Shown piece by piece: positions 4,171-53,826 of a DNA stretch of 64,000 bases (positions within the stretch are counted from its first letter, which is position 1; every line of letters starts with the position of its first letter). The notes under the pieces were generated by a model. It saw only the letters and a program-made list of their open reading frames with translations, had not been told where the DNA came from and did no database searches. Source of the stretch: a virus (lineage: Duplodnaviria > Caudoviricetes); the IMG/VR virus record IMGVR_UViG_3300037851_000671, positions 32,001-96,000 of that record, one strand, 5' to 3'. The translations under genes were made by a program, and so were the position numbers.

Positions 4171-4176
4171 GATATA
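4171..4176 (+). promoter_or_regulatory. Candidate phage promoter class B, G(A/T)TATA-N9-start (first instance)
   Basis: Motif exactly 9 nt before start codons at 4171, 14694, 25431 (GTTATA), 26545, 30247, 49488 and 53812. Confidence 0.6.
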
Positions 4177-4185
4177 TGGATCGGC

Positions 4186-4452
4186 ATGAAAGAGCCAAGG
4201 ATAGTTTGTGTGCTAGCGCAATCAGAACCAGAGTACGTTGGTAAAATGCCGCTTCGTTCTGATATAGTTGTTCTACCAGCTGATGATCCTAAATTACTGA
4301 AAAAAATTGGTTTTAGTGTTGAAGAGAAAATTGGTATTGGTGTTGTCAATCCAAGAGGCGTGGCTATAGCAAGCAAGATAACTGTTGTTGATGGAATATT
4401 GAACGAACACCCTCCGGCTTTGGTAATTCGTAAAGTTACTATTGTTGAATGA
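4186..4452 (+). CDS. Small paralogue of the major capsid protein C-terminus
   Basis: PEYVGKMPLRSDIVVLPADDPKLLKKIGFSVEEKIGIGVVNPRG vs capsid PEFVGVMPIRQDIEVIPADEPKQLKLGWVVSEEIGIGIVNPRG; about 31 of 53 positions identical by eye. Confidence 0.75.
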   Translation: MKEPRIVCVLAQSEPEYVGKMPLRSDIVVLPADDPKLLKKIGFSVEEKIGIGVVNPRGVAIASKITVVDGILNEHPPALVIRKVTIVE

Positions 4453-4517
4453 TTGTCATGTTGCGTTGGTCGCGCACTGTATATTTAGGTATATTGGTGC
4501 GATTATACCAATGGTGA

Positions 4518-7500
4518 TTGATAATGACAACAAATAGGCAAACTGTTATTGTTCCTGATGAAGTTACTTATCCAGACGGGTACGTTGTTACATATGACCT
4601 TGTAAGTCAGTCATTTGTACCTAAAGCCCCAATAACATCGTATGGTCCAACGGGTCCTACAGGGGCCACCGGTCCCATTGGCCTTGGGTATGCAGGGCTC
4701 ACTTCAAATACTAGTTTTGCATCTAGTGATACCGGTACTAAGATTCTAACAACAAATCTATCTTCTATACAAACCTCATTTGGTGTTGGAACAAGAATTA
4801 GGGTTGCTTCAGCGGCAACACCAACAGATTTTGTTGAAGGCATCATTGCGTCTTTTGGCGGTTCGCTGTTGAGTTTCACCATAGATTACAATTCTGGTAG
4901 CGGAACACATACAGATTGGAACATAAGCGTAGCTGGACAAGTTGGATCTACAGGACCAACCGGAGCAACGGGACCAACTGGTGCGACCGGAGCAACAGGA
5001 GCAACGGGATATGGAAACTATGATTTGAACAATCTGTACCCAAATGTAATTCAAGATCCAACTGGGTTTGCTACAAGAACAACATCAAAAGTGACACTGG
5101 ATGTTGGTAATAAAACCCTAATCATAGATCCTGTTGGTGGTTCAACGTTTGATTACTACATAATGGGTATCAAGTATACGGTTGGTACAAAATCGGTAGC
5201 TTGGACAGCTGTCGAAGGATCGCATTTCTTCTACCTAGACTCAAGTAGTAATCTGGTTCATACAACAGATCCAACGGTATGGGCGGCGTGCATTCTTGGA
5301 ACTGCTGGGGCACCTGTTTGGTTTTTGGCCTGGGATAATACCAATAGCAAAATCCTAAGATCCATTGAAGAAAGGCACGGAACACAGTTGCCTGGTTCTA
5401 TCCATTCTTATCTTCACACCTATTTGGGAACACAATGGAAAAGTGGTGGTGCGTTAGCAAACTTCACAATAAGCACTGGAGCTGCTGATTCGCACGCTCA
5501 ATTTTCTGTTGATGACGTTGTGATAGCTGATGAGGATTTGCAGAGAAGCATTACAAATGCTGCATCACAAGTATTGTCAACAGTAGCTCAGTTGCCTGTT
5601 TTTTATCTATCTGGCACAATTGCTAGTCCTGTTTTTAGATTCAAAGAAGCTGATACATTCCCATTCATACAAAGTGGCTCAGCGGGATATACCGGAGCAA
5701 ATGGTAGAATTGCGTATAACGAAAATACAGGTGCCAATTGGGTTTTGACAGAGGTTCCTGTAAACGACAATTACGTACTATCTCATATAATTGCAACACC
5801 AGCACCAGACGGCTACACACCGATTATGGCTGTGCTAGGACAGACGTTTTATACTACGCTGGCCAATGCAACAACGGGGGCAACTACTGAAGCAGGATCT
5901 CTTCAGGGTTTGGTGTCTTTGATGTCAACCGAGTATAAAATACTTGGAACGGTTATCTATCAAACAAATTCTGGATATGGAAACACAGTAAAAGCAAGAG
6001 TGGTTGCTCCGTCTACTGGTGGTAATTATGTTGATTTTAGAGCTTCCAAATTCAACAACTCCACTACACAAGGCGCTGCGGGACCAACCGGAATAGGGTA
6101 TGCTGGATTTTCTTCTGCAACTTCTTTTGCATCAAATACGACAGGGCCAATTTCAATAACTACAAACTTCGCCAATACAGCAACAGCTTTTGCGGTTGGG
6201 GATAGAATAAGGGTGGCATCTCTCGCTACGCCGACAGATTTTGTCGAGGGTATAGTTACAGCGTTTTCTGGAACGTCGTTGACATTTACATCTGATTTGA
6301 CATCAGGTTCTGGAACACATACTGATTGGGTTATTGGAATTGCTGGTCAACAGGGAACCACAGGACCAACAGGACCAACAGGTGCCACTGGGGCAACGGG
6401 AATTGGATACGCAGGTCTAACGTCATCCACATCTTTTGTAGCTTCTTCAGTTACGCCAGTAAGCCCGGCAACTATAACCACAAACCTAGCATCAACAGCG
6501 AGTGCATTTGCTGTAGGGGAGCGAGTACGAGTAGCCTCGGCCGGTACACCAGCAGATTACGCAGAAGGTCCAATTTCATCTTTCAGCGGCACTACCATGG
6601 TAATCACCTGGGATTTTGGTGCAGGATCTGGAAGTGCCCATACTGATTGGACTATTTCAGCAACCGGTGTGAGAGGTTCCACTGGACCTACTGGACCTAC
6701 TGGACCTACTGGACCTACTGGGGCCACAGGCGCTACTGGCCCTTTGGTTCCATTATCAACAATCCTTGGTGTTGGTGATACAACAGATGGAAATGACATT
6801 TACCTAACAGGAACTGACAGGTTATTAACTGATGCCGGTTACCTTGCAAAATCAGGTGGTTCAATACGTTTAAATGGAAAAGACGGGATTCCAGGCCAAG
6901 ATGGTTATTCTGTTTACATTCGTTCTGGAGACTCTATTGATGGGTACGCTGGTATCGCTATTACGTTATCTGCTGCCGTGTCTGGATCTTATGCTGGAGG
7001 GTTAAATCTATACACAGGAAATTTTGGTAGTTATGGTAAAGCGGCCAGTGCAAATATAAACAACGCATCTTCTGGACAGTCAGCGTATTGGTACATAACA
7101 TCCGGAGGTTTTGGTAGTGATACAGATGCAGTATTCCAACTAGGATCATCTTCGGCTTCCAATTCCTATGGTTGGAAACTTGCTGGTGGAACATTTGGAG
7201 GATCTGGCAACGGAACAGGCGCAACGCTTGAAGCAAAAGCTGTAACATCATCATACGGATCAGAGATATACATTAGCACAGGCGGAACAACCGATGGTTA
7301 TCCTGGTACGTCAATGTCGCTATGGAAAGCACAAAATGGTTTGAATGCCGGTGGTTTTAATCTATATACAGGCGATTTTGGAAGTTTTGGAAAAGCGGCA
7401 TCAGCAGTTATAGACGGGGCATCTGCTACACAATCGGCATATTGGTTCTTGTCATCTGGAGGTTTTGGAACACATTCAGGATCCACTTTCCAATTGGGTC

Positions 7501-9878
7501 GTGCAATTTCTGCTTCCACTTTTGGTTGGTCTTTGGTTGGTGGAAATTACACGGGAATAAGCAACACCGGAGCTAGTTTCTCTGGATCGAGTGCGTTATC
7601 AACAAACGGATCAAACATTACACTAACGTCTGGAATATCTCCAGATGGGTATCCGTCAGCTACATTAAATATTTACGGTGGTAGAACAGCAACCAGAGAT
7701 GGTTATGTTGGAATAAATTCCTGGCTTAAGATTGAAAGAAAGGCAGCCCCAACGGGTTTGGTAAACGTACTATATGCAAAATCTGCAACTAATGAACTGC
7801 ATTGGATTGATAACGCAGGAACCGATAATATCATATCTCCACCTGTAAGCATGCCAACCGGAACAGCTGCTCAAGTTCTTCAATACAACAACTCTTCTGT
7901 TCTTACAGCGCAGTCGATGTTGTATGCGTCTTCGACAACGATTACAGCAGCGCCAACACTTGGGTTTATCAGAGGTGCAGGTAGCGATGTTATCATTGGT
8001 GCTAAAATTGGAGCAAACAACTTCAACGCACTGAGCCTTGATGCTGGAACTACATCACTGTGGCTGGGCTCTACTGCGGCAGCTGGTCCTACATATTTGA
8101 AACTAGGATCGCCAAGCAATGTACAATTGCAGGTTGGTAGTACCAATGCAATTCAGATTGATACATCGAACATAACCATGGTGGGAGCTGATGGAAATAC
8201 AGGGGGAAGTATCTCTCTTAGTTCTGGCGCTAGCTCTTCCATGAACACAACCAAAGCATCTATTACAATTGTTCCTGCTAATAGCGGAACCACAGCAAAT
8301 ACAAATGGTCAGGTTGGAGTAACTGGCGCTATTGTACATGCACCAAACGTTTGTCAAAAACCAATGCCAGGAGATGGGTCTACGGCTTTTTGGTGGAAAC
8401 TTGATGAGCTTGGTGCTGCTGGAGCTGTTCCAACTGCATGGGCAAGCTCAGGTACGCAAAACGTCAATTTGATAAAAGTGGGTGGAGCTGTAGCTGTTGC
8501 TCAAGGAATTCATGGTAACTGTTTATCTTTTACAGCGGCAAATGCTGCTGTAGTTTGGAACAACCTAAACCAGGCTATAAGTTCGGCGATTACGTTGTCG
8601 TTCTGGATCAATCCATCAACGTTTATTGCTAACACGTATTTTGTCACCAAAGACTACTGGTCAGAGTTTACCTATAGCAAAGGTGGTTTTTATGTTGGTT
8701 TTTCGAGCAGCGCAACTGATAACTGGACAATTTCTGTAACTGATAATGGTGGTGGAACACACACATATGCATCATCAAATTTCGCTGTTCGTAATTTGCC
8801 AATAGGAACCTGGAGTCATGTTGCTATTAGCGTGGATAGCGTTGCTTTGTCTGTGTATCTTAATGGTAAATTGATATACCGCACAACAACCGGATACACA
8901 TTGGGTTCTAGTGGTGGTTGGCATCTTGGAGGTTTGTTGTGGGGTGATGGAACTGTAATGGCAAGCACCTGCTTCACTGGTTTGATTGATGATGTCAGGG
9001 TTGATAACACTGTCAGATCTTCAAAATACATTGCTGACCTGTACAACTCAGCTTTTGGAACAGCTCAAATATACGACGGAATTTACTCACCAGATGCAAG
9101 CACTTATCTCAGGTGGATTTTTAATGAAACCGGAACACCATGGAAACATTCTGGTTTCTATGGAGGCGCTCTTGATTTGACTGTTGGACAAGGAACTGTA
9201 GACGTTGCGCCTGGATTGTTTGTAAATTCTGTACGTACATCTATTGGGAGTTTGAAAACAGCTGATACATCTGTAAACCCAGGCAATACGTTCACTATAT
9301 CTGCTTGGGTAAATCTGAGTGCATATTCTGTGGTCGATCAACTAGCCAACCTGTATAGTATCATAATATGTAAAAACTATAGACCTGTTACCGATCCTAA
9401 TCCTTGGGCATCGCCATTTGCATCAATATACATAGCACTTACTGGTGCTATGGATGGCAGTTGGGAAATTAGATTGATTACAGGATCTGGTGTAGCGAAC
9501 CTTTTTAGCATTGGTGGTGCAAATGTAATACCGCTGAACACTTGGTGTTTGATATCTCTTACATATGATGGGTCTATTGTAAAGGCTTATCTTAATGGAA
9601 ATCTTGCGGCGAGTATGTCGGCCACCGGCAACGTTGACTATGGTACAAATGGCCCATGGATGGTTGGCGGAAGGCTGACCGGTGGTAACTGGGGTAGTAA
9701 CGCTCAATACTTTGATGGTATGATTGATGATGTAAGGGTTGAGACAACTGTACGTTCAGAGGCTTATCTCAAAGCAATGTACCAGAAGGGTTTTGTTGGA
9801 ATTACGTATGTTGATGTTCAGGGTAGGTTGGTATATCAATCACCAAACGGAAACATAACTGTACTTGGGGCTGGTTGA
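4518..9878 (+). CDS. Large modular fibre protein: collagen-like GPT repeats, three ~85-aa repeats, two C-terminal LamG/concanavalin-A-like domains
   Basis: GPTGPTGATG stretches; repeats GYAG.TS..SF...RIRVAS..TP.D..EG...HTDW at about 4686, 6096 and 6405; two domains with T.S.W.N, W..vAis.D, FdG.IDDVRv. ATG start probably 4524. Confidence 0.8.
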   Translation: MIMTTNRQTVIVPDEVTYPDGYVVTYDLVSQSFVPKAPITSYGPTGPTGATGPIGLGYAGLTSNTSFASSDTGTKILTTNLSSIQTSFGVGTRIRVASAATPTDFVEGIIASFGGSLLSFTIDYNSGSGTHTDWNISVAGQVGSTGPTGATGPTGATGATGATGYGNYDLNNLYPNVIQDPTGFATRTTSKVTLDVGNKTLIIDPVGGSTFDYYIMGIKYTVGTKSVAWTAVEGSHFFYLDSSSNLVHTTDPTVWAACILGTAGAPVWFLAWDNTNSKILRSIEERHGTQLPGSIHSYLHTYLGTQWKSGGALANFTISTGAADSHAQFSVDDVVIADEDLQRSITNAASQVLSTVAQLPVFYLSGTIASPVFRFKEADTFPFIQSGSAGYTGANGRIAYNENTGANWVLTEVPVNDNYVLSHIIATPAPDGYTPIMAVLGQTFYTTLANATTGATTEAGSLQGLVSLMSTEYKILGTVIYQTNSGYGNTVKARVVAPSTGGNYVDFRASKFNNSTTQGAAGPTGIGYAGFSSATSFASNTTGPISITTNFANTATAFAVGDRIRVASLATPTDFVEGIVTAFSGTSLTFTSDLTSGSGTHTDWVIGIAGQQGTTGPTGPTGATGATGIGYAGLTSSTSFVASSVTPVSPATITTNLASTASAFAVGERVRVASAGTPADYAEGPISSFSGTTMVITWDFGAGSGSAHTDWTISATGVRGSTGPTGPTGPTGPTGATGATGPLVPLSTILGVGDTTDGNDIYLTGTDRLLTDAGYLAKSGGSIRLNGKDGIPGQDGYSVYIRSGDSIDGYAGIAITLSAAVSGSYAGGLNLYTGNFGSYGKAASANINNASSGQSAYWYITSGGFGSDTDAVFQLGSSSASNSYGWKLAGGTFGGSGNGTGATLEAKAVTSSYGSEIYISTGGTTDGYPGTSMSLWKAQNGLNAGGFNLYTGDFGSFGKAASAVIDGASATQSAYWFLSSGGFGTHSGSTFQLGRAISASTFGWSLVGGNYTGISNTGASFSGSSALSTNGSNITLTSGISPDGYPSATLNIYGGRTATRDGYVGINSWLKIERKAAPTGLVNVLYAKSATNELHWIDNAGTDNIISPPVSMPTGTAAQVLQYNNSSVLTAQSMLYASSTTITAAPTLGFIRGAGSDVIIGAKIGANNFNALSLDAGTTSLWLGSTAAAGPTYLKLGSPSNVQLQVGSTNAIQIDTSNITMVGADGNTGGSISLSSGASSSMNTTKASITIVPANSGTTANTNGQVGVTGAIVHAPNVCQKPMPGDGSTAFWWKLDELGAAGAVPTAWASSGTQNVNLIKVGGAVAVAQGIHGNCLSFTAANAAVVWNNLNQAISSAITLSFWINPSTFIANTYFVTKDYWSEFTYSKGGFYVGFSSSATDNWTISVTDNGGGTHTYASSNFAVRNLPIGTWSHVAISVDSVALSVYLNGKLIYRTTTGYTLGSSGGWHLGGLLWGDGTVMASTCFTGLIDDVRVDNTVRSSKYIADLYNSAFGTAQIYDGIYSPDASTYLRWIFNETGTPWKHSGFYGGALDLTVGQGTVDVAPGLFVNSVRTSIGSLKTADTSVNPGNTFTISAWVNLSAYSVVDQLANLYSIIICKNYRPVTDPNPWASPFASIYIALTGAMDGSWEIRLITGSGVANLFSIGGANVIPLNTWCLISLTYDGSIVKAYLNGNLAASMSATGNVDYGTNGPWMVGGRLTGGNWGSNAQYFDGMIDDVRVETTVRSEAYLKAMYQKGFVGITYVDVQGRLVYQSPNGNITVLGAG
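6681..6721 (+). repeat. Perfect 9-nt tandem repeat (actggacct x4.5) encoding collagen-like TGP
   Basis: Read directly from the sequence. Confidence 0.9.
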
Positions 9879-10578
9879 GGGTAATATGTCGAAAGGTATA
9901 AATAACGCAAAAATATACAGCGGAGAGTTTAGAACATCTATATACAGGAATGGAAGTGGTTCGGCAATTCCAGATGCTATAACCATACAATCAATCAACA
10001 TGAAACAGTTACCAGTAGCGATTACTGATTTCTGTCATGTGTTTGTAGATTCGATCATCATGTTCAACATCTATCCTGGTGGCAGCACTGGTTCTGACGC
10101 TACCCATCACAACTTTGCAAGCTACTCTGGTGGTATGCAAAAAAGCGTAAAGCTGAACTATGATCCAATACTCCCATACCCTTTCTCAAAGAACAGCTCA
10201 TTTTCGGCATCTCCAACCAAGTTCCTTACCTATAGGCAGGGAAACACAAGACTAGATCCTGATATGTCATTCCAGGTAAGAACAACATCTGGTACTGACC
10301 TTTCGATATGGAGTGCATACTATGCTGTGCCAGACCCTGCATTGACGTTTTCTTCAGCTAACATCAATGGTGAAACACAGTCACGCGTAGACTTTTGTAA
10401 CATATGGGGAGTCGTTGGTATTGGTAATACGGAGATTACAAGGGCCGATCCTAATTCAATCAATGTCAATTGTGCTATGTTTGCAAATGCTGTAAATGGA
10501 AACGTCTCTGCACTGATAAACTATTCGTGTGTTTCTAGGATAGTGGTTGCTCAGCCAGATTTGTACGGGATAATATGA
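9865..10578 (+). CDS. Hypothetical beta-rich protein, possibly a fibre partner
   Basis: 237-aa ORF coupled to the fibre gene; likely start ATG 9886. Confidence 0.5.
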   Translation: MGLVEGNMSKGINNAKIYSGEFRTSIYRNGSGSAIPDAITIQSINMKQLPVAITDFCHVFVDSIIMFNIYPGGSTGSDATHHNFASYSGGMQKSVKLNYDPILPYPFSKNSSFSASPTKFLTYRQGNTRLDPDMSFQVRTTSGTDLSIWSAYYAVPDPALTFSSANINGETQSRVDFCNIWGVVGIGNTEITRADPNSINVNCAMFANAVNGNVSALINYSCVSRIVVAQPDLYGII

Positions 10579-11378
10579 AAGCAAGAAAGATCGTTGTCAT
10601 TTGCCCTTTCTCCAGACCTGAGTTTCAACAGAATGTTTTTGATAATTTCACACAGCAAACGTTCCACGGAAAAGAACTTGTTATTGTTGAGAATGGTGAG
10701 TCTGTTGGGAAATGGAAGCTACCAGCCACTCAGATTTTGAACTCTAACAAGCACCAAGCATCGGCAAAAAACACAGGCCTGCTCTATGTTGGCGAAAAGT
10801 TTCCAGACGCTTTGTGGACAACTTTCGATGATGATGACTACTACGGACCAGGGTACTTGGAAGAGCTAGCGGAAAATTCAGACAAGGCAGATGTAATTGG
10901 AAAAGCAAACATTTTCATGAAATCAAAAAGCGGAAAGCTTAGGTTCATAGACATCTGTAGAGAAAACGAATACTCAAATTACTTGTGGGGTTGTTCCATA
11001 TCTTCGTGGGTAAAAGATATCAATTTCCCATACACAGGGGTATGGGGAGAGGATAACACTTGGCTTGATATCGCTGAATCAAAGGGTCTGAAAATTTACG
11101 CTACATCTAGGTATAATGCATACATAAATAGGTGCCACGAAAGGAACACCTGGAGAACAACAGATCAAAACATAGTTAACACAAGCAATAAAGTTGTTGA
11201 ATATGAGTTTGATATAGATGTTATTAACAACAAAAAACAAGCTCAAGGCAAAGAACTTCAGAGATCTAATGCGTTTGATTTCTCTCATGTTGAGGAGCAA
11301 TTTAATCTTTCTGATTTTGAGAAGTTCATTGACGGGCACATAGAAGGAGAGTTATGGCAAAGATCACATCACCAGTAA
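10575..11378 (+). CDS. GT-A fold glycosyltransferase (GT2-like)
   Basis: N-terminal IVVICPFSRP..ELVIVENG and acidic DXD-type motif TFDDDDYYGPGYLEEL; ATGA overlap with the upstream gene. Confidence 0.75.
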   Translation: MKARKIVVICPFSRPEFQQNVFDNFTQQTFHGKELVIVENGESVGKWKLPATQILNSNKHQASAKNTGLLYVGEKFPDALWTTFDDDDYYGPGYLEELAENSDKADVIGKANIFMKSKSGKLRFIDICRENEYSNYLWGCSISSWVKDINFPYTGVWGEDNTWLDIAESKGLKIYATSRYNAYINRCHERNTWRTTDQNIVNTSNKVVEYEFDIDVINNKKQAQGKELQRSNAFDFSHVEEQFNLSDFEKFIDGHIEGELWQRSHHQ

Positions 11379-11713
11379 CCAACACAGAAATACCAAGTGG
11401 ATACTTTACCGTTACAGGAGAGATAGACGATGCTACAGAGGTAGTTGACGGATATGCGTGGTTGGTGATGGGACGCACTCATTATCATCATGTGATGTGG
11501 CCAAAGGCTAATGTCTCTGGAAATTTCAGTGAGTCAATTTTCGAAGGAGGGGATCCTGGCCCAATTATTTGCAGACTGATGGTAGTAACACCAAGCGTTC
11601 ATGAGAGGTTTATGGATGTTTCTGTAACTGATGCCGGTTTGGAAATACCAGACTTCGTGCAGCTTGACTATGTAAATCTGACAAAAACTGGAGATTTAGC
11701 GCCAAAGCCATGA
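11354..11713 (+). CDS. Small beta-sandwich (Ig-like) hypothetical protein
   Basis: 119 aa, SD gaaggag; AKITSP....I...FTVTGE pattern typical of Ig-like modules. Confidence 0.45.
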   Translation: MAKITSPVTNTEIPSGYFTVTGEIDDATEVVDGYAWLVMGRTHYHHVMWPKANVSGNFSESIFEGGDPGPIICRLMVVTPSVHERFMDVSVTDAGLEIPDFVQLDYVNLTKTGDLAPKP

Positions 11714-11759
11714 TTGTTAGCTAGGCATTCTTCAGTATGAATATGACTCTGCATGAACG

Positions 11760-12569
11760 GTGAACCGCATGAAACTACCAATAGAAGCTAGAATTAAATT
11801 GCTTTGCAAGGTTGTGGGAGATTTCTACAAATACGCCCACACCAACGAGCAAATATTGCCGTCTTCTATTACCTATCGTGTAACAGCGCCTGAAGAAAGC
11901 ACTTTGGTAAAACAAGCCGCCAGACAGGCTGCCTTTGAGTCTCTTAAAAATTCCACATCTAGTTCTGTACGCCAGGACAAGATTACCAAGCTGGCGTTTG
12001 ATACGAGAAGAATTGATCAGGAGCATGATCGCAATCCTCGCCACAACCTACAATATTGGCACAGATCAGATCCGTTCATTGATGACGAAGACCAGAAGAA
12101 GCTTGATATCTTTGCTCGTCTTGGAAAAATCCTTGGGCAACTCAAGGATAAACTCGGAACGGACCCGCAGTGGTTTGAAAGCTATGTTCGTCAGCTACAC
12201 GATAACGTCAATAGGATATTGAGGGTCAAGCAGGCTGACATGGATATTTTCAGGCCTCAGTTGGCTTATCTTGAACAGTTGGTTTATGCTAGATATAGAT
12301 TGACTATGGAGAATCTTGAGAAATTCTCGGATGAGCAGTTGACGGAATCAATCCTGGCCAAGGATGAAAACCTAAACGGCAAGTCAAAGTTTCTCACCAC
12401 GGTATCTAAAGATGAAAAACCTGCGGCGCTGATAAAAGACAGCTTGACCAAAACAACTCAAGATTCTATTGTCAATGCAATTTTCGGCGCTCCAAACTTG
12501 AGAAGGGATGGGGAAAGAACAGTGGAGAGGACAATCACAATTAAAATCGTTGACAGTGTTGTAGACTAA
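11760..12569 (+). CDS. Hypothetical alpha-helical protein
   Basis: 269-aa charged helical ORF; ATG at 11769 is an alternative start. Confidence 0.6.
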   Translation: MNRMKLPIEARIKLLCKVVGDFYKYAHTNEQILPSSITYRVTAPEESTLVKQAARQAAFESLKNSTSSSVRQDKITKLAFDTRRIDQEHDRNPRHNLQYWHRSDPFIDDEDQKKLDIFARLGKILGQLKDKLGTDPQWFESYVRQLHDNVNRILRVKQADMDIFRPQLAYLEQLVYARYRLTMENLEKFSDEQLTESILAKDENLNGKSKFLTTVSKDEKPAALIKDSLTKTTQDSIVNAIFGAPNLRRDGERTVERTITIKIVDSVVD

Positions 12570-12580
12570 AAAGGAGCAAG

Positions 12581-13198
12581 ATGCCACCCGTTGGTTTTGA
12601 GACATGGTTTCCGAAGCAATGTCCCACATCATTCGTGGTGAAAAACATCGCTCCAGGGAACAAAAGAGTTCACGTTTTTCACTATCCTATTGCTAACGGG
12701 ATGGAGCGTGATCTCATGGCCATTCCCTACGTTTCTGAGGCTGATATTCGTCATTCTTTGTTAAAGGGTGAGCTGTATACGAAGCTTCTGTGCCGTGATA
12801 TTAGAGTAACAGAAAGCAACATTGACCTTATTCAATTTGATGCGTGTCACAAAAACTTCCTGCAACAGGCCGGTATAACGATTGGCCTTGATTGTGGTGG
12901 TAGCGGATCTAACGTTAGGTATTTGTTCAGGCAGAATGTACCATTAATTGGACCTTTAAATAACGCCAATAGGGTGTTCATGGTGCCTTACCAAGAGAAG
13001 TTTTTGAACAACAATTTTGATGGTAATGATTTTCGTATAATAGTTGAGCATAACGGAAGGAGGTTGATTGAGAACGTTGATTACACTGTTCTTGAGTCTA
13101 CCCCTGGTTCTGGATATGACTTAATACGAATGGATTCTTTTGTACCAAATACAAGAAGTCATTTGATTGCTGACTACGTAATCGAAAACAGCATCTAA
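12581..13198 (+). CDS. Hypothetical virion protein; N-domain paralogous to 27435..27914
   Basis: SD aaggag; VKNIA...VSEADIRHSLLKGELY resembles ITNIS...YTEEQIRASIASGSIF; C-terminal NGRRLIENVDY module common in phage structural proteins. Confidence 0.55.
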   Translation: MPPVGFETWFPKQCPTSFVVKNIAPGNKRVHVFHYPIANGMERDLMAIPYVSEADIRHSLLKGELYTKLLCRDIRVTESNIDLIQFDACHKNFLQQAGITIGLDCGGSGSNVRYLFRQNVPLIGPLNNANRVFMVPYQEKFLNNNFDGNDFRIIVEHNGRRLIENVDYTVLESTPGSGYDLIRMDSFVPNTRSHLIADYVIENSI

Positions 13199-13207
13199 GG
13201 AGACAAT

Positions 13208-14695
13208 ATGGCATCACGTCAAAACGCACTTGATCAAGAACTAGACATTGCTGGTTCACAACTACAATCATCAACAATGGTTTTGGCTGATGAGCCAAAT
13301 CTTTTGGGATCTCCGGTTACTGGACAAACTGGCGCAGCTGGAACAATTACGGCTGCCTCTGGCGGTATCAGTACAATGGATGGTCTTACCGGTATGACCG
13401 CTGATTCTGTTGGCAAATTCCTGACAGTTTCTGGAGCAGCTAATGCAGGAAATAACGGAACGTTTTTGATAGTTGCGTATAACTCTGCAACATCAGTAGA
13501 CATAGCAAACGTTTCTGGTGTATTTCCAGATGCGAATACAGGGGCTTTGGTATGGACTGAACGCAATCCATATTCTTTGCTTGATGACTTGAATTATGAG
13601 CGTACAGACCGCGCTGCTATCAAAGGTGTTGCGTATTCTGCGGCAATTCCTACATACACACGTCCAACCGCTACAGGAACACCAGTACCAGCAAACCTGT
13701 CAAATATAGCTGGTAAAACAACTGATGCTCAGGCCATTGTTGCCAATCGCAAATTTGAAGACCTTACAATTAATCTTGGTGACACTTATATCACACTAAG
13801 TGATACCGGAAACCTGAAACACGCTGATGCAATAGATAGAACAGGCGTACCAATCTGGGACGGTGCTGACGCTGGTAATTGGGAGGCAACATACTGTGAA
13901 ATCGCATCTCAGCAAGAACAGGAGTTGTTGGTTGTTGGAGGTCCATATGACGGATACAGAATCTTTGGACGTTCAAGGGCGGGGGCTTCTACATCTCCAA
14001 ACTCTGTTGAGGTAGAGTTCTTCTGTGTAAGGCGCGGAGATCCTGTCTCTACAGCTGTTGCTTACACATGGGATGGTTACCAGCCAACTTCGGTTGATAT
14101 CTACTACCCATACCGTACACGACTTGACCAGATGTCAGAAACGGCAATGCGCGTTCTTTTGGTCAATGGTTTGGTGAGCGATGCTGTTACAACAGAGCTG
14201 AATAACATCTATTCAACATTGGGCACAAATTCCACATCAACAAGCTTGGCAGGATTGTTGACCAATCTTGGAGCGTATTACCCATTCTATAACCTACCTG
14301 ACGCATCTCCGTCTGTGGTTGAGGCTTTAAACACTTTGAACGAGCAGATTGGAAACCGTGATTACACCGGACCAATACTCACTGACGGATATACCATTAC
14401 ACAGTCTCTGCAGCAACTTGCTAATGCTATTTCTGGAGCAACATCACAGAGGTACATTGAAAGGCTGGCGGCTTCGATTACAGCAAACACTGCACACACC
14501 CTACCAGGTGGTTTGACATATACACCAGATGGAACGAACAATGGTAAAAATATGTGGGTGTTTACGAGAGGTTTGTTGAGAGATCCGGGCCCAGTAAGCA
14601 GTGGAAATGACTACGCTGAAACAAGCTCAACACAGATAACTTTCTATTCCAAGCTTAATGCTGGCGATCACATAAACTACATCGTATACATCTGA
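13208..14695 (+). CDS. Probable structural appendage protein
   Basis: 495 aa, Thr/Gly/Ala-rich, SD aaggag; NNGTFLI module; C-terminal VFTRGLL..GNDYAETSSTQITF module; 3 DGY. Confidence 0.6.
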   Translation: MASRQNALDQELDIAGSQLQSSTMVLADEPNLLGSPVTGQTGAAGTITAASGGISTMDGLTGMTADSVGKFLTVSGAANAGNNGTFLIVAYNSATSVDIANVSGVFPDANTGALVWTERNPYSLLDDLNYERTDRAAIKGVAYSAAIPTYTRPTATGTPVPANLSNIAGKTTDAQAIVANRKFEDLTINLGDTYITLSDTGNLKHADAIDRTGVPIWDGADAGNWEATYCEIASQQEQELLVVGGPYDGYRIFGRSRAGASTSPNSVEVEFFCVRRGDPVSTAVAYTWDGYQPTSVDIYYPYRTRLDQMSETAMRVLLVNGLVSDAVTTELNNIYSTLGTNSTSTSLAGLLTNLGAYYPFYNLPDASPSVVEALNTLNEQIGNRDYTGPILTDGYTITQSLQQLANAISGATSQRYIERLAASITANTAHTLPGGLTYTPDGTNNGKNMWVFTRGLLRDPGPVSSGNDYAETSSTQITFYSKLNAGDHINYIVYI

Positions 14696-14708
14696 TATAT
14701 GATAGGTT

Positions 14709-14918
14709 GTGCAGAAAGTTGATCTAACATTCACAGAAATAGAACATCCAAGTTTCTGGTGCGATTCAGGACACAGACCACCAGAAACTTGGGGTAAAGA
14801 TCAGAAACCCACTCGCTTTTTCCGAGCTTCTGGAAAGGCCGGTGGGGTTTTCTGTGAGTGTTGTATGATTGTTGCTAATTACGTATCTGACAGACAAAGG
14901 AAAGAAAATGGCATATAA
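14709..14918 (+). CDS. Small putative zinc-binding protein
   Basis: WCDSGH...FCECC; GTG start 9 nt after GATATA. Confidence 0.5.
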   Translation: MQKVDLTFTEIEHPSFWCDSGHRPPETWGKDQKPTRFFRASGKAGGVFCECCMIVANYVSDRQRKENGI

Positions 14919-15297: not shown

Positions 15298-15300
15298 GAC

Positions 15301-15311
15301 TAAACCAGCAT
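15301..15311 (+). promoter_or_regulatory. Candidate phage promoter class A, TAN-N4-GYAT (one instance)
   Basis: Ends 6-7 nt before SD-less ATGs at 15318, 27929, 33206, 34857, 45374 (and 52771 as CCAT); further copies at 11718, 16442, 23704, 27166, 28252, 29201, 46218, 46267. Confidence 0.6.
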
Positions 15312-15317
15312 TAGAGT

Positions 15318-16433: not shown

Positions 16434-16476
16434 GCTATGAATAGTAGGGCATACGAATAGCCATTAAAGGAGAAGG

Positions 16477-17541: not shown

Positions 17542-17573
17542 TTGTGGGTATATTCTAGGGCAAAGGAAATGTA

Positions 17574-23041: not shown

Positions 23042-23054
23042 GGAGATAACAATC

Positions 23055-44450: not shown

Positions 44451-45143
44451 TCAAGGAGTGAGGCAACACCAACCGTTAAGTCCGGAAGCAATGGGGGTTT
44501 TTGCACACCTGGTGGCTGTAGAAGGAGGGGCTACACATTTGAAAGCTGCAAAGAAATATGCATAACCACCTTCGCTACAAAATGTTGGAAGATTCGATCC
44601 TGATGACGGTTCACAAGTACAACCGCCAGTACAAGTAGAAGGAACGTTAGCGGTATTTCCTGTATTATTGTTGCCGGCTACACTGCCACTTCCAGTTGTA
44701 TTTCCGGTTCCAGCTGTGTTGCCAGTATTTCCATTCCCAGATCCAGCATTGCCAGATCCAGCATTGCCGGTCCCTCCGCCGCCAGCATTGCCCGACCCTG
44801 TGTTGCCAACATTTCCAGTTCCAGCGTCACCGGATCCGGCCTCACCAGATCCTTTGTTACCGGATCCAGCATCACCAGATCCGTTGTTACCGGATCCTGC
44901 AATTATGGTGGGTTCTCCGGCAATATTGATAGGCATACCGGCAACACCTGGATTTTTACCAGCAATTACGGGTTCCTTGCCAGCGGCGGCGTTGTTTCCA
45001 GCATTTCCGTTTGAGACGTAATTTGCTGTATTGCCTGTATTTGGAGCTCCGGCGGGTTGCTCAACATCTGGCCTGGCCTCGAACCCTGGGCCTGAGCAAG
45101 CAACAGCTGAAAAGCAAAGGGCAGCGAGTATCAGCTTGTTCAT
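44451..45143 (-). CDS. Predicted lipoprotein with Gly/Asn/Ser-rich linker and Cys-rich C-terminal domain
   Basis: MNKLILAALCFSAVA|C (lipobox-like); GSG.AGSG repeats; 7 Cys in the last 60 aa; SD gagga on the minus strand. Confidence 0.75.
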   Translation of the reverse strand: MNKLILAALCFSAVACSGPGFEARPDVEQPAGAPNTGNTANYVSNGNAGNNAAAGKEPVIAGKNPGVAGMPINIAGEPTIIAGSGNNGSGDAGSGNKGSGEAGSGDAGTGNVGNTGSGNAGGGGTGNAGSGNAGSGNGNTGNTAGTGNTTGSGSVAGNNNTGNTANVPSTCTGGCTCEPSSGSNLPTFCSEGGYAYFFAAFKCVAPPSTATRCAKTPIASGLNGWCCLTP

Positions 45144-45184
45144 GTTATTTTCCTCTGGTTTGGTTGCTCAAGCTGTTGATTGCC

Positions 45185-45212
45185 AGTGTAACTCTTCTTG
45201 TTCGGATGTCAA
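45185..45212 (-). promoter_or_regulatory. Sigma70-type promoter for the lipoprotein gene
   Basis: Minus strand TTGACA (45212-45207), 16 nt, TACACT (45190-45185), about 40 nt before the ATG. Confidence 0.7.
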
Positions 45213-45373
45213 CGGGGTCTTTTCGTTTTACCTACACTGGAATAAGATGCTGAATCGCGTCATCTATGTTTGCTTCTGAATCGTTATCGAGAGCAATCAA
45301 GTGCTTAGCTAGCAGATATACACGAAAAGATGCCTGTCAAGGAACGTGGCGGCGAATATTTCCGCATACGACC

Positions 45374-46213
45374 ATGGTCAATCCAACAACCGGCATTCCT
45401 TCTTTTGGCACACCAGCCGTTGGCAACCTGGAAAGATCAGATCTCTACGGGATATACAACGTTGTCCAGAACACCCTGATGGCTTATCCGAAGGATTTGG
45501 TTGTCAGCGTGTTGAGAGACGAATTTAGTAAAGATTCGTATTATCATTTTGTTTTAGACGAATTCGGTTTCCCAAAAACCCCGGATCATACTGACATGCC
45601 ATTGGATGCTGGTTTCAATGACGATCAGACAACCAGAATTTTCATTGGGGAGCCTTGGAGATTTGATGTAATCCTGTATCCTGCAATTTTAGTGAAAATA
45701 ACCTCAGCCAAATACGTACCAATCTCGATGAGTAGAAATAAGTATGTAGTTGAGTATGATAGGCAGTTATTTGCAGATGGATATGGAAACTACAAAGAAG
45801 TTATGACGCCTTTGTATTACGATGTTGCTGGTGTGTGGGAAGGCAACATGCAGATTGATATTATTGATCGTGACATACTTTCTAGGGATAATCTAGTAAG
45901 TCTAGTGATGTTGATGCTTGCTGATGTGAAGTATGAAAACTTCAGGAAAGCTGGTTTGGTATTGAAACCACCATCTCTTAGCGGTTTGACTGAGGGAGAT
46001 GACAGACAGCAAGAAAAAATATACAAGGCAACAATAAGTGTTGATTACAGAACAGAGTGGCGCAGGCTCATCCCTATAGAGAAGATTGTTGATAAAATCA
46101 ATGTTTGTCTGGAATTTGGCCAGATTGTTAACAATCAAGTAACCGGGCCAACCAATCCAAACTTTGATATCAACATAAGCCTTAGCATTCTTGATCAAAT
46201 AGAGAACTTGTAA
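45374..46213 (+). CDS. Probable tail terminator/completion protein
   Basis: Directly before the sheath gene; YPAILV...G..QIDI..RD...RD.L..L pattern. Start taken at ATG 45374. Confidence 0.6.
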   Translation: MVNPTTGIPSFGTPAVGNLERSDLYGIYNVVQNTLMAYPKDLVVSVLRDEFSKDSYYHFVLDEFGFPKTPDHTDMPLDAGFNDDQTTRIFIGEPWRFDVILYPAILVKITSAKYVPISMSRNKYVVEYDRQLFADGYGNYKEVMTPLYYDVAGVWEGNMQIDIIDRDILSRDNLVSLVMLMLADVKYENFRKAGLVLKPPSLSGLTEGDDRQQEKIYKATISVDYRTEWRRLIPIEKIVDKINVCLEFGQIVNNQVTGPTNPNFDINISLSILDQIENL

Positions 46214-48826: not shown

Positions 48827-49489
48827 ATGGCATACCCTCATACAGGATCTATTCTAACAGCAGGTGGCGACAATAAAGGCGCCAACACAACCCGCACCTC
48901 AGTAAGCACCAATATCATCATCGTTGTTGATGGAAATCCGGTGGGTGCGATAAAGCAAATCAGCATCAACGAACAGCGTACCATTGAGCAGATCAAGGAA
49001 ATTGGCACTGATGGTAGCGTTGACTCTGTTCCAAAGTCAGCCACCAAGATAACTGGTGACTGTCAGCGTGTAAGGTTTGATAACCTTCGCGTGGCAACAG
49101 CGTTCTCCCGTGGCTTCGTTCACGTAGCCGCCCAGCGCGTACCGTTTGACATTCTGATATTGGATATCTTTGGTGCTACAGAAGATGAGCAAGGAAACAT
49201 TGACCCATCAGGTGTTGTTACTACCGTTTTGAAAAATGTGTGGATTAACAAACTTGATACAAGATACAACTCTGATGATTACATAATCACAGAAGGCATG
49301 GGCTTTGAAGCTGAGTTCATCTACAGCTATGTTGGAAACGGACAATCTGCAACCAATGCAGTCAGCGCTCGTCCTCTCAACTTCATTGACAACGATCCAT
49401 TCGAGAAACAGGCGGATCTTGGAAAGAGGCGTGGAGCGTTGGATGCAGCTGGACTTATCAATGTTGTGGATTCTATTGCTACAACCTGA
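48827..49489 (+). CDS. Tail tube protein
   Basis: Follows the sheath; VGAIKQISINEQR..EQIKEIG...VP...RVRFD; 220 aa. Confidence 0.8.
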   Translation: MAYPHTGSILTAGGDNKGANTTRTSVSTNIIIVVDGNPVGAIKQISINEQRTIEQIKEIGTDGSVDSVPKSATKITGDCQRVRFDNLRVATAFSRGFVHVAAQRVPFDILILDIFGATEDEQGNIDPSGVVTTVLKNVWINKLDTRYNSDDYIITEGMGFEAEFIYSYVGNGQSATNAVSARPLNFIDNDPFEKQADLGKRRGALDAAGLINVVDSIATT

Positions 49490-49502
49490 TATATGACAGT
49501 GT

Positions 49503-50237
49503 ATGGGAAAGATTAGAAGTTCAGTTAGTTCTCCAATATCAGAACCTCAGGGAATTCCAAACGTTTCCAAAAGGGTTTTTACAGTACCAGACGGTCATGG
49601 ATCAGATGACGATATACCTCCGGAGAGGAATTTTGTAACCTCCGGAGGTAAACGTTTTGAGCTTCCAGAGGGTGCAAGACAGATTTCTCCTGGTGAGTTT
49701 CATGAGACCAGAAGCCGCATGCAACAAATGGCGGAACAACCCAAACAAGCTCAGTTGCAAGAGGCTAAAACAAGGGTTGAAATTATAACTGGTATTGGTA
49801 GAAAAACAAAGGATGTTCCTGTTGATATGGGGAACGGACAGGTAACCACATTCTCTATCAGAACATTGAAAGGCAAGGAGCATTTTGCGCTTGCTGAGGT
49901 TATTGAGGGTTCAAAGACAATTAGGACCCATGATGGCGAAATGATGATGACGATCACAAGCGCCTATGACATACGTATTGAGACATTGAAGCATGCGTTG
50001 TATGCTATTGATGGTGTTGATATCAATGTTGTTCTTGGTGTGTCTGCAAGACCGCTGGAAGAACAACTAGCTGCAAGAGAGGACTTGCTCCATGATATGG
50101 ATGATGCCTTTACAAAGAAATTGTACAAGACATATGAAGAACTTTTGCAGGATATTGCGGACAAATTCGGTGTGAAGAACGAAAAAGACGCAAAGGAGTT
50201 GGCCGAAGCCATAAATAAAAGTGGCGAGGCTCCCTGA
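49503..50237 (+). CDS. Tail assembly chaperone (gpG-like)
   Basis: Between tube and tape measure; FSIRTLKGKE..ALAE; ends CCC TGA. Confidence 0.7.
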   Translation: MGKIRSSVSSPISEPQGIPNVSKRVFTVPDGHGSDDDIPPERNFVTSGGKRFELPEGARQISPGEFHETRSRMQQMAEQPKQAQLQEAKTRVEIITGIGRKTKDVPVDMGNGQVTTFSIRTLKGKEHFALAEVIEGSKTIRTHDGEMMMTITSAYDIRIETLKHALYAIDGVDINVVLGVSARPLEEQLAAREDLLHDMDDAFTKKLYKTYEELLQDIADKFGVKNEKDAKELAEAINKSGEAP

Positions 50238-50570: not shown

Positions 50571-52748
50571 ATGGCTGAAATATTTACCACAGAACAGATT
50601 CAGGCTTTTGCAGATAAAGCTGGTGCTGCAAAAGATTCGGTTATGGCGTGGTGGAATAGTCTTACCGGTATTCAAAAATCACTTGTAACAACAGCCACCA
50701 TAACGGAGCAGTTTAAAGGTAAAATACAAGACCTTGACAAGATAGTAAAAGAGACGCTAACATCTTCTGATGCTCTTTCTGGTGCGATGAAACGATTGCA
50801 AGAGAATGTTGGTTTCTCCTCTGAGAAATTTGAACAATTCGCGCAGAGCATAGAAAGGGCGGCTGGGAAAGCTACAAATTTCCAGATTCAAACAATGATG
50901 CTTATGGAGCCGATGCTTGGTGTTCTTCCAAAAATACCAACAGCATTTGGTAACATGGGAGATGCTGGGGATATAGCCGGAACCAAAATTGCCAATAGTT
51001 TTTCTATAGCTATTCCCTATCTTGAAAAACTGGGTTCTTTTGGGGCAGCTGGCGCAGCAATGTTCAAAGAATATACCGCTGGCGCAGATAGAGCCAATGG
51101 TCTTGAAAGAAGCATAGTTAGCCTTGTTTCAAGTGCCGGAGGCTTGAATTCTATGCTTGTTGAAAACGGACAATTAACAGGTGAGGTTCTTGACAGAAGA
51201 TATGCAACCTTTACCAGAAGGATGCATGAGATTGGAGATGCTACTGGGCACACAATAAGTGAAACCATGAATTTCGCTCAGGCTCTTGGTGCGATTCCAG
51301 AAGCTCTTAACCAGCCAATTAAATTATTGGATGGTGTTCGTGGTTCGTTATCATCTATGAGTCAGCTTGAAGCAAGTCTAACACTTGCCTCTTCATATGG
51401 ATTGAAGCACGGAGATGTTGTTGCCAGATTGACAGAGCTGTATCAGCGTTTTGGCACTCGTGGTACTGAGGCGTTTGAGTCTGTCAATGGAATATACAAA
51501 GCGGCTCAAGACCTGAACATGCCATTGAGCAACGTAACTAAAATTGTCACTGATTCTGCTAATCATTTCAAGCTTCTTGGTGATAATACACAAGCCGCAA
51601 CCAATGTTCTAAGGGCATTTGGATCTGCACTGAAGGACAGTAACCTTGGACCGGAAGGTGTAGAAAGAATTGTTGCATCAATGTCGGTAGGCGTTTCAAA
51701 AATGAGCGAGAGCCAGCAGGCTTTTGTATCTGCGTCTACTGGCGGGCCTGGCGGATTGGCTGGCGCATACCAAATCGAAAACGCCATTCAAGAAGGCAAA
51801 ATGGATGAGGTTCTTGGCCGAACAATGGAGGCCATGAAACGCGAGTTCGGCGGTCCAATACTTACTTTGAAAGATGCCGCTTCTGATCCTTCCAAATCAG
51901 GAGAGTTCTATAAGCAGGTACAATACCTTACTAAAGTAACTGGCATTGCAAGTGATAAACATGAGGCATATCGTATCTTGGAAGGAATGCAGAAAGGCGC
52001 TTTGGATGAAACTCAGATCGGAAGAAGGGCAAAGGGACCTGAGTTAAAGCAAGCACTGGAAAGGGGACATTTCCTACAAGAGCGCGGAAACACAGAACTA
52101 ACCAGGATTTACAATAGGATTAGTGAATACAACATAATTCAAGCGGCTGTTGAGCGTGGGGCCATATCAAAAATCATTGGTGCCGAGGGTTTTACAGGTC
52201 TTGGAGAAAGCATGAGAACAGCCGGTGGTAGGGCTGGTGCTGGCGGCGCTCTTGGACAATCATATGATGAAAATGGGAATGTATTGAGTACCACAAGGAT
52301 GGCAAGGGAAAGTTTTCAAGGCGCTGTCCAAGCTCCGCTTGATGTTGTACACAAAATAGCGCCAATGCTTGCTCCGTTAGTAGGAAGTTTAAAAGACCAC
52401 ACACAAGCATTTCTTACCGGAGGAAAGATTAAACAAACAACTAGGACAGCTGGTTTCATAAGCACAAGACCAACAAAAGCAGAGGGTCACAAATGGGGGC
52501 AGCCTGGTTTTGGAGTATCGCCGGCCGCAAGAGGAATGCCATCTTTTCCAGGTCCTAATGCTGCCGGCGCCCAAGGCTTTACCATCAATCAAGGCAAACC
52601 ATTTGCGCTTGAACCGGTCAAAGGAACTATTGATGTTCATATCAAATTCTCCGATATAAAAGATGGGTTGTCTGATCTTGTTAAAAAAGAACTCAAGATT
52701 CAAGGCAGAGAAAACCAGTTCGGTAGAAACGCTGGTGTTAAGCCATGA
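50571..52748 (+). CDS. Tape measure protein
   Basis: About 725 aa, Ala/Gly-rich helical; canonical position after the chaperones. Confidence 0.75.
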   Translation: MAEIFTTEQIQAFADKAGAAKDSVMAWWNSLTGIQKSLVTTATITEQFKGKIQDLDKIVKETLTSSDALSGAMKRLQENVGFSSEKFEQFAQSIERAAGKATNFQIQTMMLMEPMLGVLPKIPTAFGNMGDAGDIAGTKIANSFSIAIPYLEKLGSFGAAGAAMFKEYTAGADRANGLERSIVSLVSSAGGLNSMLVENGQLTGEVLDRRYATFTRRMHEIGDATGHTISETMNFAQALGAIPEALNQPIKLLDGVRGSLSSMSQLEASLTLASSYGLKHGDVVARLTELYQRFGTRGTEAFESVNGIYKAAQDLNMPLSNVTKIVTDSANHFKLLGDNTQAATNVLRAFGSALKDSNLGPEGVERIVASMSVGVSKMSESQQAFVSASTGGPGGLAGAYQIENAIQEGKMDEVLGRTMEAMKREFGGPILTLKDAASDPSKSGEFYKQVQYLTKVTGIASDKHEAYRILEGMQKGALDETQIGRRAKGPELKQALERGHFLQERGNTELTRIYNRISEYNIIQAAVERGAISKIIGAEGFTGLGESMRTAGGRAGAGGALGQSYDENGNVLSTTRMARESFQGAVQAPLDVVHKIAPMLAPLVGSLKDHTQAFLTGGKIKQTTRTAGFISTRPTKAEGHKWGQPGFGVSPAARGMPSFPGPNAAGAQGFTINQGKPFALEPVKGTIDVHIKFSDIKDGLSDLVKKELKIQGRENQFGRNAGVKP

Positions 52749-52770
52749 GGCATAATCAGCCATATTTGGT

Positions 52771-53802
52771 ATGGTGTATGATCTTCAAGGACAAGCAGAA
52801 AACACGTACAGAATAACTCAAGGAGCGGTAAATGGACCATCTCCAGATCCTCCTGGTTTTACTGATACGGCATCAATACCAAGCAAAACCGGAAATGCTG
52901 TAAGACAAGCTCGTTTTCAATCCAATAGAGCTGCTACTGCTCGTCGAAACCTTATTCGTTGGTTCGTGCCTGAGACCGGTATTGTTGAGATGTTTGTTAA
53001 CCCATCTTCAATCAAATACACAGAAAAGAAGGTGATTTCAGAAACAAGAACCAGGGGAGGTTATGTTCTTCAATACTGGGGAGAGGAACTTGAAACCCTA
53101 AACATCACTGGAAATACAGCAAGCTCTGGTATTGAGGGAATCAATGTCCTCAGAGACATATACAGAAACGAACAGGTATCCACAGATCCTTTGGCCATTG
53201 CGTTGACCGCTTATCGCGAGAAGCAAAACGCAACCGCCAAGTCTGAGTTTACAGTTGACAATTTCTTCGGTGGCGTTGGAAACCTTCTTCAGGGCGCGGC
53301 AGACGATGTGTTTCGCTCAGTCAATAACCTTGTGCAGTATGGAAACATCAACCCTAGCGTTCCAAGACCAACTCTAGCCTCAATGGCCTTTACAGTAGAG
53401 ATGTATTGGTCAGGTTGGGTGTTCAGAGGTTACTTTACTGATTGTGCTGTTGATGAAACAGCAGATAGCCTTGGTTTGTTCAATTATCATATCAACTTCA
53501 AAGTAACACAGATGAGAGGATGGAGAAATAACTTCATGCCTTGGCATAGGTCTGCTGTCAACGGTCCATCCAACTCGGACCCTCAATATGGCCGTCCTTA
53601 TTCGTTTGCGTATATGAAAAGGCAAACACCACAACCAAATATTGTTGGTGGTAGGGAGATTCTTCCCCCTTTGCTAACTCCTACAACTGGAATAGATCCA
53701 AACACAGAAATAACAACCAATACATCTATGAATCGTTTGCCAAACAACGTTATACCAATTCAACAATCATTGACAAGCGGTCGTGCTATTATTGGTAAAT
53801 GA
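52771..53802 (+). CDS. Probable tail tube initiator / baseplate-tube junction protein
   Basis: MFVNPSSI...TRGGYVLQYWGEEL..LNITG...YW.GWVFRGYF..F..NFKVT. Confidence 0.6.
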   Translation: MVYDLQGQAENTYRITQGAVNGPSPDPPGFTDTASIPSKTGNAVRQARFQSNRAATARRNLIRWFVPETGIVEMFVNPSSIKYTEKKVISETRTRGGYVLQYWGEELETLNITGNTASSGIEGINVLRDIYRNEQVSTDPLAIALTAYREKQNATAKSEFTVDNFFGGVGNLLQGAADDVFRSVNNLVQYGNINPSVPRPTLASMAFTVEMYWSGWVFRGYFTDCAVDETADSLGLFNYHINFKVTQMRGWRNNFMPWHRSAVNGPSNSDPQYGRPYSFAYMKRQTPQPNIVGGREILPPLLTPTTGIDPNTEITTNTSMNRLPNNVIPIQQSLTSGRAIIGK

Positions 53803-53826
53803 AAACAGGTGGATATAAGGTAAGTC

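Follow-up and report, generated by a model that had tools for sequence, protein, structure and literature searches.

What kind of signal is carried by a short A/T-rich word that recurs exactly nine nucleotides (nt) upstream of start codons in the genome of an uncultured phage? The question was raised by a 64,000-nt stretch of phage DNA (hereafter the window), which corresponds to bases 32,001-96,000 of the 218,772-bp IMG/VR record IMGVR_UViG_3300037851_000671 (G000; 43% G+C, 51% complete according to CheckV). An initial annotation of this DNA had listed seven sites at which GATATA or GTTATA is followed by a nine-nt spacer (N9) and a start codon, mostly lacking a clear Shine-Dalgarno (SD) sequence, and had read the word as a phage-specific promoter giving leaderless mRNAs. 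That reading was supported by every sequence-level test that was run (the pyrimidine/purine pair at the predicted start site, the copies ahead of leaders, the genomic context and the layout swaps between orthologues). We consider it probable (about 0.7) that the motif is a single-element promoter, with a predicted transcription start site 10 nt after GATATA, and that the genes of the N9 class would be expressed from leaderless mRNAs.

Phage record, relatives and gene calls

The window contains a structural module (a tail sheath, fibre-like giants and a 1721-aa protein) in which nearly all genes lie on the plus strand. A megablast of window positions 17000-24000 against the phage collection gave no match to a named phage at the DNA level. 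A search with the sheath protein retrieved 22 related IMG/VR loci (55-72% identity) and no relative in bacterial and archaeal genome contigs; a search with the 244-aa protein encoded after the tube gene retrieved one distant locus only. Five relatives were analysed as whole records: G001 (392 kb, 91% complete according to CheckV), G002 (336 kb, 78%), G003 (321 kb, 75%), G006 (130 kb, 30%) and G007 (126 kb, 29%). Spacing counts in relatives were made on whole records, because the 8-22-kb loci lose the genes cut at their ends and are uninformative for this purpose. The gene set of G000 was obtained with a simple home-made open reading frame (ORF) picker and comprised 213 genes, covering 93% of the record. 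Positions refer to the window unless they are given as genome positions.

A fixed distance to start codons

All seven sites of the initial annotation were present, on the plus strand, and are predicted to be leaderless. TGATATAT-N9 precedes an ATG at 4171-4188 (88-aa ORF, 4186-4452), 26545-26562 (108-aa HNH endonuclease) and 49488-49505 (the 244-aa protein after the tube gene), and a GTG at 14694-14711 (69-aa ORF). GGATATAA-N9-ATG was found at 30247-30264 (128-aa ORF) and 53812-53829 (the 1721-aa protein), and GTTATAT-N9-ATG at 25431-25448 (366-aa protein of phrog_12787, function not assigned). Three sites overlap the TGA of the preceding gene, as had been claimed: the stop codons at 14693, 26544 and 49487 lie within TGATATA and end, respectively, gene 13208-14695 (14693-14695), gene 25446-26546 (26544-26546) and the tube gene (49487-49489).

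The spacing was far from random. GWTATA-N9-DTG occurred 12 times in the window, compared with 3.65 +/- 1.87 times in shuffled sequence, and none of 100 shuffles reached 12. Genome-wide, the fixed spacing was enriched in the window and in the 219-kb record alike, with a GATATA peak at N9. In a motif-first scan of the whole record, which is independent of gene calls, GATATA-N9 led 12 times to the start codon of an ORF with 50 aa or more, and every other spacing from 0 to 30 gave 0-4 such cases. No spacing peak was found in the whole record for [ACT]ATATA, TATATA or TATAAT. At plausible gene starts of G000, GnTATA stood at N9 in 15 cases, at N10 in four and at N11 in three; in the N9 class, which makes up about 7% of phage genes, n was A (11), G (3) or T (1), and the start codons were 13 ATG, two GTG and no TTG. 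A G was found two bases before TATA in 15 of 16 TATA-N9 starts. Motif discovery before the genes, which had been proposed as a check, ranked GATATA at -15 as the top positional hexamer (p ~4e-14), level with SD words (AGGAG), the latter being scattered over several positions unlike the sharp N9 peak. The peak recurred in G001 and G002 (11 cases each) and was weaker in G003.

One further GATATA-N9-ATG in the window (45315-45332, plus strand) opens a reading frame of only 49 aa, which lies out of register across the start of gene 45266-46213, and may be a chance occurrence.

Consensus and predicted start site

The consensus was derived from 34 pooled GnTATA-N9-ATG/GTG sites of G000-G003. Counted from the A of ATG as +1, it reads t(-16) G(-15) A(-14) TATA(-13 to -10) T(-9) R(-8) N6 Y(-1) R(+1). 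At -14, A is preferred over G and T, and a T at -16 is weakly preferred (19/34). Three positions outside the search pattern were conserved as well, namely -9 (T in 29/34), -8 (purine in 28/34) and -1; the last is a pyrimidine in 33 of the 34 sites, compared with 46% of 510 SD-led starts in the same genomes (Fisher p = 6e-10). Bacterial RNA polymerase favours a pyrimidine at -1 and a purine at +1 of its start sites.

The G at -15 corresponds to the G of TGn, so that the TG typical of extended -10 elements lies one base upstream of the hexamer, and the TATATR hexamer ends 7 nt before ATG or GTG, which is the layout of leaderless-gene promoters. No -35 element was detected: across the 34 sites, the information content was at most 0.32 bit at every position from -55 to -16, and this absence of upstream conservation is the basis for describing the class as lacking a -35 box. 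Two statements of the initial annotation on the composition of the element held as well. The nine-nt spacer contains no conserved G-rich word, in line with the claimed lack of a clear SD, and the final T expected of a -10 box is lost, the base after TATAn never being T in the 15 G000 sites and being T in two of the 34 pooled sites.

Copies ahead of genes with leaders

The element is not confined to the N9 class. Within 70 nt upstream of genes, GATATAT was the most enriched 7-mer in G000 (14 copies, 1.4 expected) and in G001 (28 copies, 4.2 expected), and it was also enriched in G002 and G003. About half of these upstream copies are at N9, and the others lie 12-60 nt before genes with a normal SD. 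Among 41 such leadered copies, the ninth base after GATATA is T in 26, and the tenth is a purine in 34, compared with 55% of 233 copies far from gene starts (Fisher p = 9e-4). Since the pyrimidine/purine pair is found at the same distance in leadered copies, it behaves as a start-site signature that is independent of the start codon. In G000, where intergenic DNA accounts for about 7% of the total, 12 of 23 copies of GATATAT[AG] lie between genes, each of the 12 being oriented towards a gene start at most 53 nt away.

Two leadered copies lie in the window, both on the plus strand. At 17547-17576, GGTATAT is followed by C/A at bases 9/10, by a 12-nt leader in which AAGGA is the SD that had been noted earlier, and by ATG 17574 of a 1114-aa gene; from the consensus, the transcript is predicted to start at the A at 17562. 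TGTTATA at 58966-58994 is a candidate leadered copy with T/A at bases 9/10 and a leader containing AGGAGAGG before ATG 58992; this call is weaker because the seventh base is G instead of T.

In eight cases, distributed over four genomes, a called ATG forms the end of GATATATG, so that motif and start codon overlap (for example G000 35,239, which is window 3239, and 202,451 on the minus strand). These may be wrong start calls, with the true start downstream of the promoter, or coincidences.

Retention and layout changes at orthologous sites

Motif copies were retained at orthologous positions in relatives, often in a different layout. Upstream of the 1721-aa gene (the 53812 site), GATATA stands at exactly N9 in 10 related loci (seven distinct sequences) whose spacers are unrelated, and at N10 in L018. 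Directly behind the tube gene, 16 of 17 distinct relatives have retained (T)GATATAT or GTTATAT, at protein identities as low as 45%, while stop codon position, leader length and the occurrence of an SD differ: the layout is of the leaderless type in the window phage and in G003, and leadered with an SD in G001, G002, L006 and L023. Motif, spacing and GTG of the 14694 site are all kept in G002. The 25431 site reads GTTATA-N9-ATG in G002 and GATATA-N10-ATG in G001, and the 26545 site has N9 in G002 and N10 in G001. At the 30247 orthologue of G001, GATATA is followed by a 20-nt stretch with GGAGG and then by ATG; swaps between leaderless and leadered layouts were thus seen at orthologues of the 30262 start, and also at those of 26560. 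Because the sequence is kept and its distance to the start codon is not, these comparisons point to a transcription signal rather than to a ribosome-positioning signal.

In five related loci (L003, L004, L005, L008 and L020), the post-tube GATATAT is followed by a conserved hairpin, CAAACCCTCT ... AGAGGGTTTG, located about 20-60 nt after the tube stop codon, in the predicted 5' leader and ahead of a GGAGG SD. The hairpin, which may be a leader structure or an attenuator, is absent from the window phage, where the layout is leaderless.

Sites after terminators and in a divergent spacer

Several motif copies stand where transcription must begin anew. A strong intrinsic terminator on the plus strand (4102-4132; 11-bp stem with seven G-C pairs, followed by a T run) lies after gene 3244-4077; it ranked first among the terminators of window positions 1-20000, and 38 nt separate its end from the motif at 4171. 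The motifs at genome positions 156766(-) and 211235(-) each follow, at a distance of 4-5 nt, a terminator-like hairpin with a T run, and the same order of hairpin, T run and motif was found in G001 and G002. In a 32-nt divergent spacer (genome 117446-117477), GGTATA-N9-ATG occupies one strand and GATATA-N9-GTG the other, and this back-to-back pair recurs in relatives. The post-terminator sites and the divergent spacer need a promoter, and there is room for no other candidate.

The gene that precedes this terminator (3244-4077, 277 aa) shares 88-96% identity with its orthologues in G001-G003, compared with the 45-65% typical of its neighbours. The 88-aa ORF beyond the terminator matches the end of the PHROG 'major head protein' family and is a diverged copy (~57%) of the last ~60 residues of the 277-aa gene. 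In G001-G003, the full-length 277-aa orthologue was the only form present, and a separate C-terminal copy was not found.

A candidate sigma factor

The initial annotation had proposed looking elsewhere in the genome for a phage sigma factor or RNA polymerase; the former was found and the latter was not. Searches with PF00562, PF00623 and PF00940 gave no hit in G000 or in G001-G003 (at most 91% complete), the blank for the T7-type polymerase (PF00940) being weak since its control gave no hit anywhere. One sigma-70-family gene was located at genome 139,513-140,169 (218 aa; TIGR02937, 66.8 bits with a cut-off of 42.9; Sigma70_r2, 24.7 bits with a cut-off of 24), and orthologues with 38-63% identity were present in all eight searched records of at least 125 kb. 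Its alignment with RpoS spans regions 2.3-3.0 and places TIKIPLKH opposite TIRLPIHV, in a stretch resembling region 2.4/3.0. In known sigma factors, region 2.4/3.0 contacts the extended -10 bases. The 218-aa protein is the most plausible candidate for the recogniser of the motif. GATATAT was not found upstream of the sigma gene itself, which has its own SD.

Directly upstream of the sigma gene lies an ORF of about 85 aa with a zinc-ribbon pattern (Cys-X2-Cys ... Cys-X2-Cys; L001:1059-1319, genome ~139,240-139,500). It seems to be co-transcribed with the sigma gene, and its product may be a sigma partner or an anti-sigma-like factor.

Proposed mechanism and its difficulties

In the proposed mechanism, the motif would be the sole recognition element of a phage-specific promoter class without a -35 box. 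The 8-mer would serve as an extended -10-like element to which host core RNA polymerase with a non-primary sigma factor binds; once the DNA is opened, transcription would begin at the purine that lies 10 nt beyond GATATA and 7 nt beyond the 8-mer. For about 15 phage genes, this purine would be the first base of the ATG or GTG, and the resulting mRNA, with neither leader nor SD, would be translated through its 5'-terminal start codon. For at least as many other genes, the element would lie 12-60 nt upstream and a normal SD would be carried in a short leader.

Several points weigh against this interpretation. The start sites are predictions; no RNA run is listed as containing window positions 22001-32000, for which a single DNA run, probably the source sample, is listed. 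The missing sixth-position T of primary-sigma -10 boxes means that a non-standard recogniser is required, and the leaderless class would need a host that is able to translate leaderless mRNA. The C-terminus of the candidate sigma factor is region-4-like (Sigma70_r4_2, 21.8 bits, below the cut-off), and a sigma of this type would be expected to read a -35 box, of which there is no conserved example here. In G006 and G007, which both have the sigma orthologue, GATATAT was not significantly enriched upstream of genes; since both records are ~30% fragments with a lower G+C content (0.31-0.35), this result is neutral with regard to the sigma link, and both keep a motif copy after the tube gene. Longer upstream ORF starts are available for two window genes (GTG 26533 for 26560, TTG 30220 for 30262), so the starts at 26560 and 30262 rest partly on the motif. 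Finally, the motif precedes structural genes and, outside the window, N9 sites also occur in a minus-strand arm with tRNA and small genes, so that no temporal class is obvious; Pfam and PHROG scans of the large window proteins gave mostly nothing informative on timing classes.

Alternative explanations

If the motif is a promoter, it could still be a standard extended -10 promoter that the host's primary sigma factor recognises, in which case it would be neither phage-specific nor dependent on a phage sigma. T-G-n-TATA equals the first seven positions of TGnTATAAT, the T before the G being the one counted in 19/34 sites, and extended -10 promoters work without a -35 box. Primary sigma factors, however, near-universally require T at the sixth hexamer position, where the pooled sites have a purine in 28/34; with T so rare there, and TANNNT not recovered in any other register, a reader of the primary-sigma type is improbable. 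Furthermore, a sigma-70 consensus scan flagged none of the motif sites and found no excess of promoters in window positions 1-20000 (29, compared with 37 +/- 6 in shuffled sequence), and the sole clear host-type promoter of the window belongs to an antisense lipoprotein gene. We therefore regard recognition by the primary sigma as unlikely. An origin by chance, by base composition or as a by-product of gene-start calling is rejected as practically negligible. The ORF picker was simple and home-made, and two window starts were picked with the motif in mind, but the shuffles did not reach the observed count, the spacing scan is free of gene calls, positions that were not searched for are conserved, and the motif is kept at orthologous sites of relatives with diverged flanks.

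Two further possibilities place the signal in the RNA. The motif could be a translation initiation signal other than an SD, acting in internal cistrons as a landing site for the ribosome or S1, or by pairing with an unusual part of the host 16S rRNA. It occupies and replaces the SD at a strict spacing from the start codon, and three window sites lie in the 13-nt gaps of tight operons, where coupling signals are expected. Yet the same word retains T/purine at bases 9/10 when it stands 12-60 nt ahead of SD-bearing genes, orthologues switch between the N9 and leadered layouts, and ribosome binding is not known to involve a pyrimidine at -1; such a signal would also leave the post-terminator sites and the 32-nt divergent spacer without the promoter that they need. 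This makes a ribosomal signal quite improbable in our view. Processing of polycistronic transcripts by a phage or host endoribonuclease, which would recognise GAUAUAU, cleave within the pyrimidine/purine pair 9/10 nt downstream and so yield leaderless or short-leader mRNAs post-transcriptionally, is judged very improbable. The Y/R pair at a fixed distance could equally mark a cleavage site, and the many motif sites inside co-directional operons fit processing, but little or no precursor RNA would be available after strong terminators or in the divergent spacer. In addition, the TATA-rich word with a G two bases upstream resembles promoter-opening elements, and we know of no described RNase site that matches it. 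A phage-specific promoter thus remains the preferred explanation.

Neighbouring features and other repeated words

The structural module has a single antisense gene, which encodes the lipoprotein mentioned above (window 44451-45212, minus strand). Its promoter-like site (45212-45185) is canonical, TTGACA-16-TACACT, unlike the surrounding GATATAT class.

A second word, (A/T)GTCGAG(A/C), is enriched 22-52 nt upstream of gene or RNA starts, and is also seen in G006. In such upstream positions, AGTCGAG occurs five times in G000 (0.35 expected) and GTCGAGA 18 times in G001 (2.3 expected). In G000 the word is mostly located in the tRNA/small-RNA arm (169,700-190,700, minus strand), with a further copy at 131,443, and in G001 it is found throughout; it may head small RNAs. 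In G003 (L068-L072), about 12 near-identical units of ~60 nt, which contain TTGACGGAAAACGTTACA, lie 13-20 nt before the ATGs of a family of multi-copy small genes (MEKL...), for example at G003 27,320, 39,768 and 75,174. Gene and upstream element thus recur together as a cassette, seen in this one relative only.

Significance

What is known of huge uncultured phages is little more than their gene content, and no promoter is known to have been described in this clade. A consensus with a predicted start site offers a handle for annotating transcription units and for correcting the starts of SD-less genes, and it makes a simple biochemical test of a new sigma/promoter pair possible. A compact element with a fixed start site and no -35 box would also suit use as an orthogonal expression part.

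A more far-reaching proposal, which we put forward only tentatively and which is doubtful as it stands, is that the phage clade runs a dedicated leaderless regulon, defined by its own small sigma factor and by the 8-bp tGATATATR placed exactly 7 nt before start codons. If true, this regulon would include the giant 1721-aa tail protein, the HNH endonuclease and truncated copies of virion proteins; these would be made only from their own promoters and by an initiation route unlike that of the surrounding SD-led genes, which would give the phages an inherent means of switching between translation modes, in hosts from a lineage where leaderless expression is not known. Should the N9 class be truly leaderless, phages could set leaderless or SD-led translation gene by gene, even between close relatives, and a strategy of the phiYS40 type would extend beyond Thermus phages.

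Comparison with known systems

The promoters of phiYS40 are reportedly read by the primary sigma factor of its host, which is said to belong to a leaderless-rich phylum. As far as the published summary goes, most of its middle and late mRNAs are leaderless, with a promoter element directly before the ORF (Sevostyanova et al. 2007, summarised in PMC3594737). The likeness to the window phage, to the extent that this summary describes it, consists in a large lytic phage without an RNA polymerase of its own and with an element directly before the ORF. Unlike in phiYS40, the element described here lacks the sixth-position T, the leaderless class accounts for ~7% of genes, and the start sites are predicted.

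The late promoters of T4, TATAAATA, are read by gp55 together with gp33 and the sliding clamp, and T4 late mRNAs have leaders with an SD. As T4 is commonly described, its late class resembles the present one in relying on one A/T-rich element, with no -35 box, that recurs ahead of many structural genes in operons; the two differ in the word itself and in the SD-bearing leaders of T4. The SPO1 late promoters, as quoted in PMC3601020, are CGTTAGA-N17-19-GATATT and depend on gp34 with gp33. GATATT shares five of six bases with GATATA and, in the quoted account, is recognised by host core polymerase carrying a phage sigma. The SPO1 promoter is bipartite with a -35 box, whereas no upstream box is conserved here, and the same account describes no leaderless layout for SPO1.

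In phiEco32, the gp36-dependent promoters (tAATGTAtA) are read by host core polymerase with a small phage sigma, and transcription starts 6-8 bp downstream (PMC8948821). Both phages have a single conserved TATA-containing element and no -35 box, and the start in the window phage is predicted 7 nt downstream. The G is adjacent to TATA in phiEco32 and one base removed here; gp36 is without region 4, whereas the window phage sigma has a region-4-like end; and phiEco32 transcripts are not described as leaderless.

Leaderless genes of Deinococcus radiodurans have a -10 box 6-7 bp before the ORF, which was shown to act as a promoter (PMC12340547). The leaderless genes of Deinococcus-Thermus and Actinobacteria resemble the N9 class in their fixed 6-7 bp, in lacking an SD, in needing no -35 element and in existing in parallel with an SD-led class (PMC12340547, PMC3160421, PMC4633059). 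Their boxes conform to TANNNT and are read by the primary sigma, whereas the phage element is GATATATR, with invariant T/A at hexamer positions 3/4 and no final T. A leaderless promoter layout is already known from a few phages; what is new is the consensus, and its occurrence in an uncultured clade.

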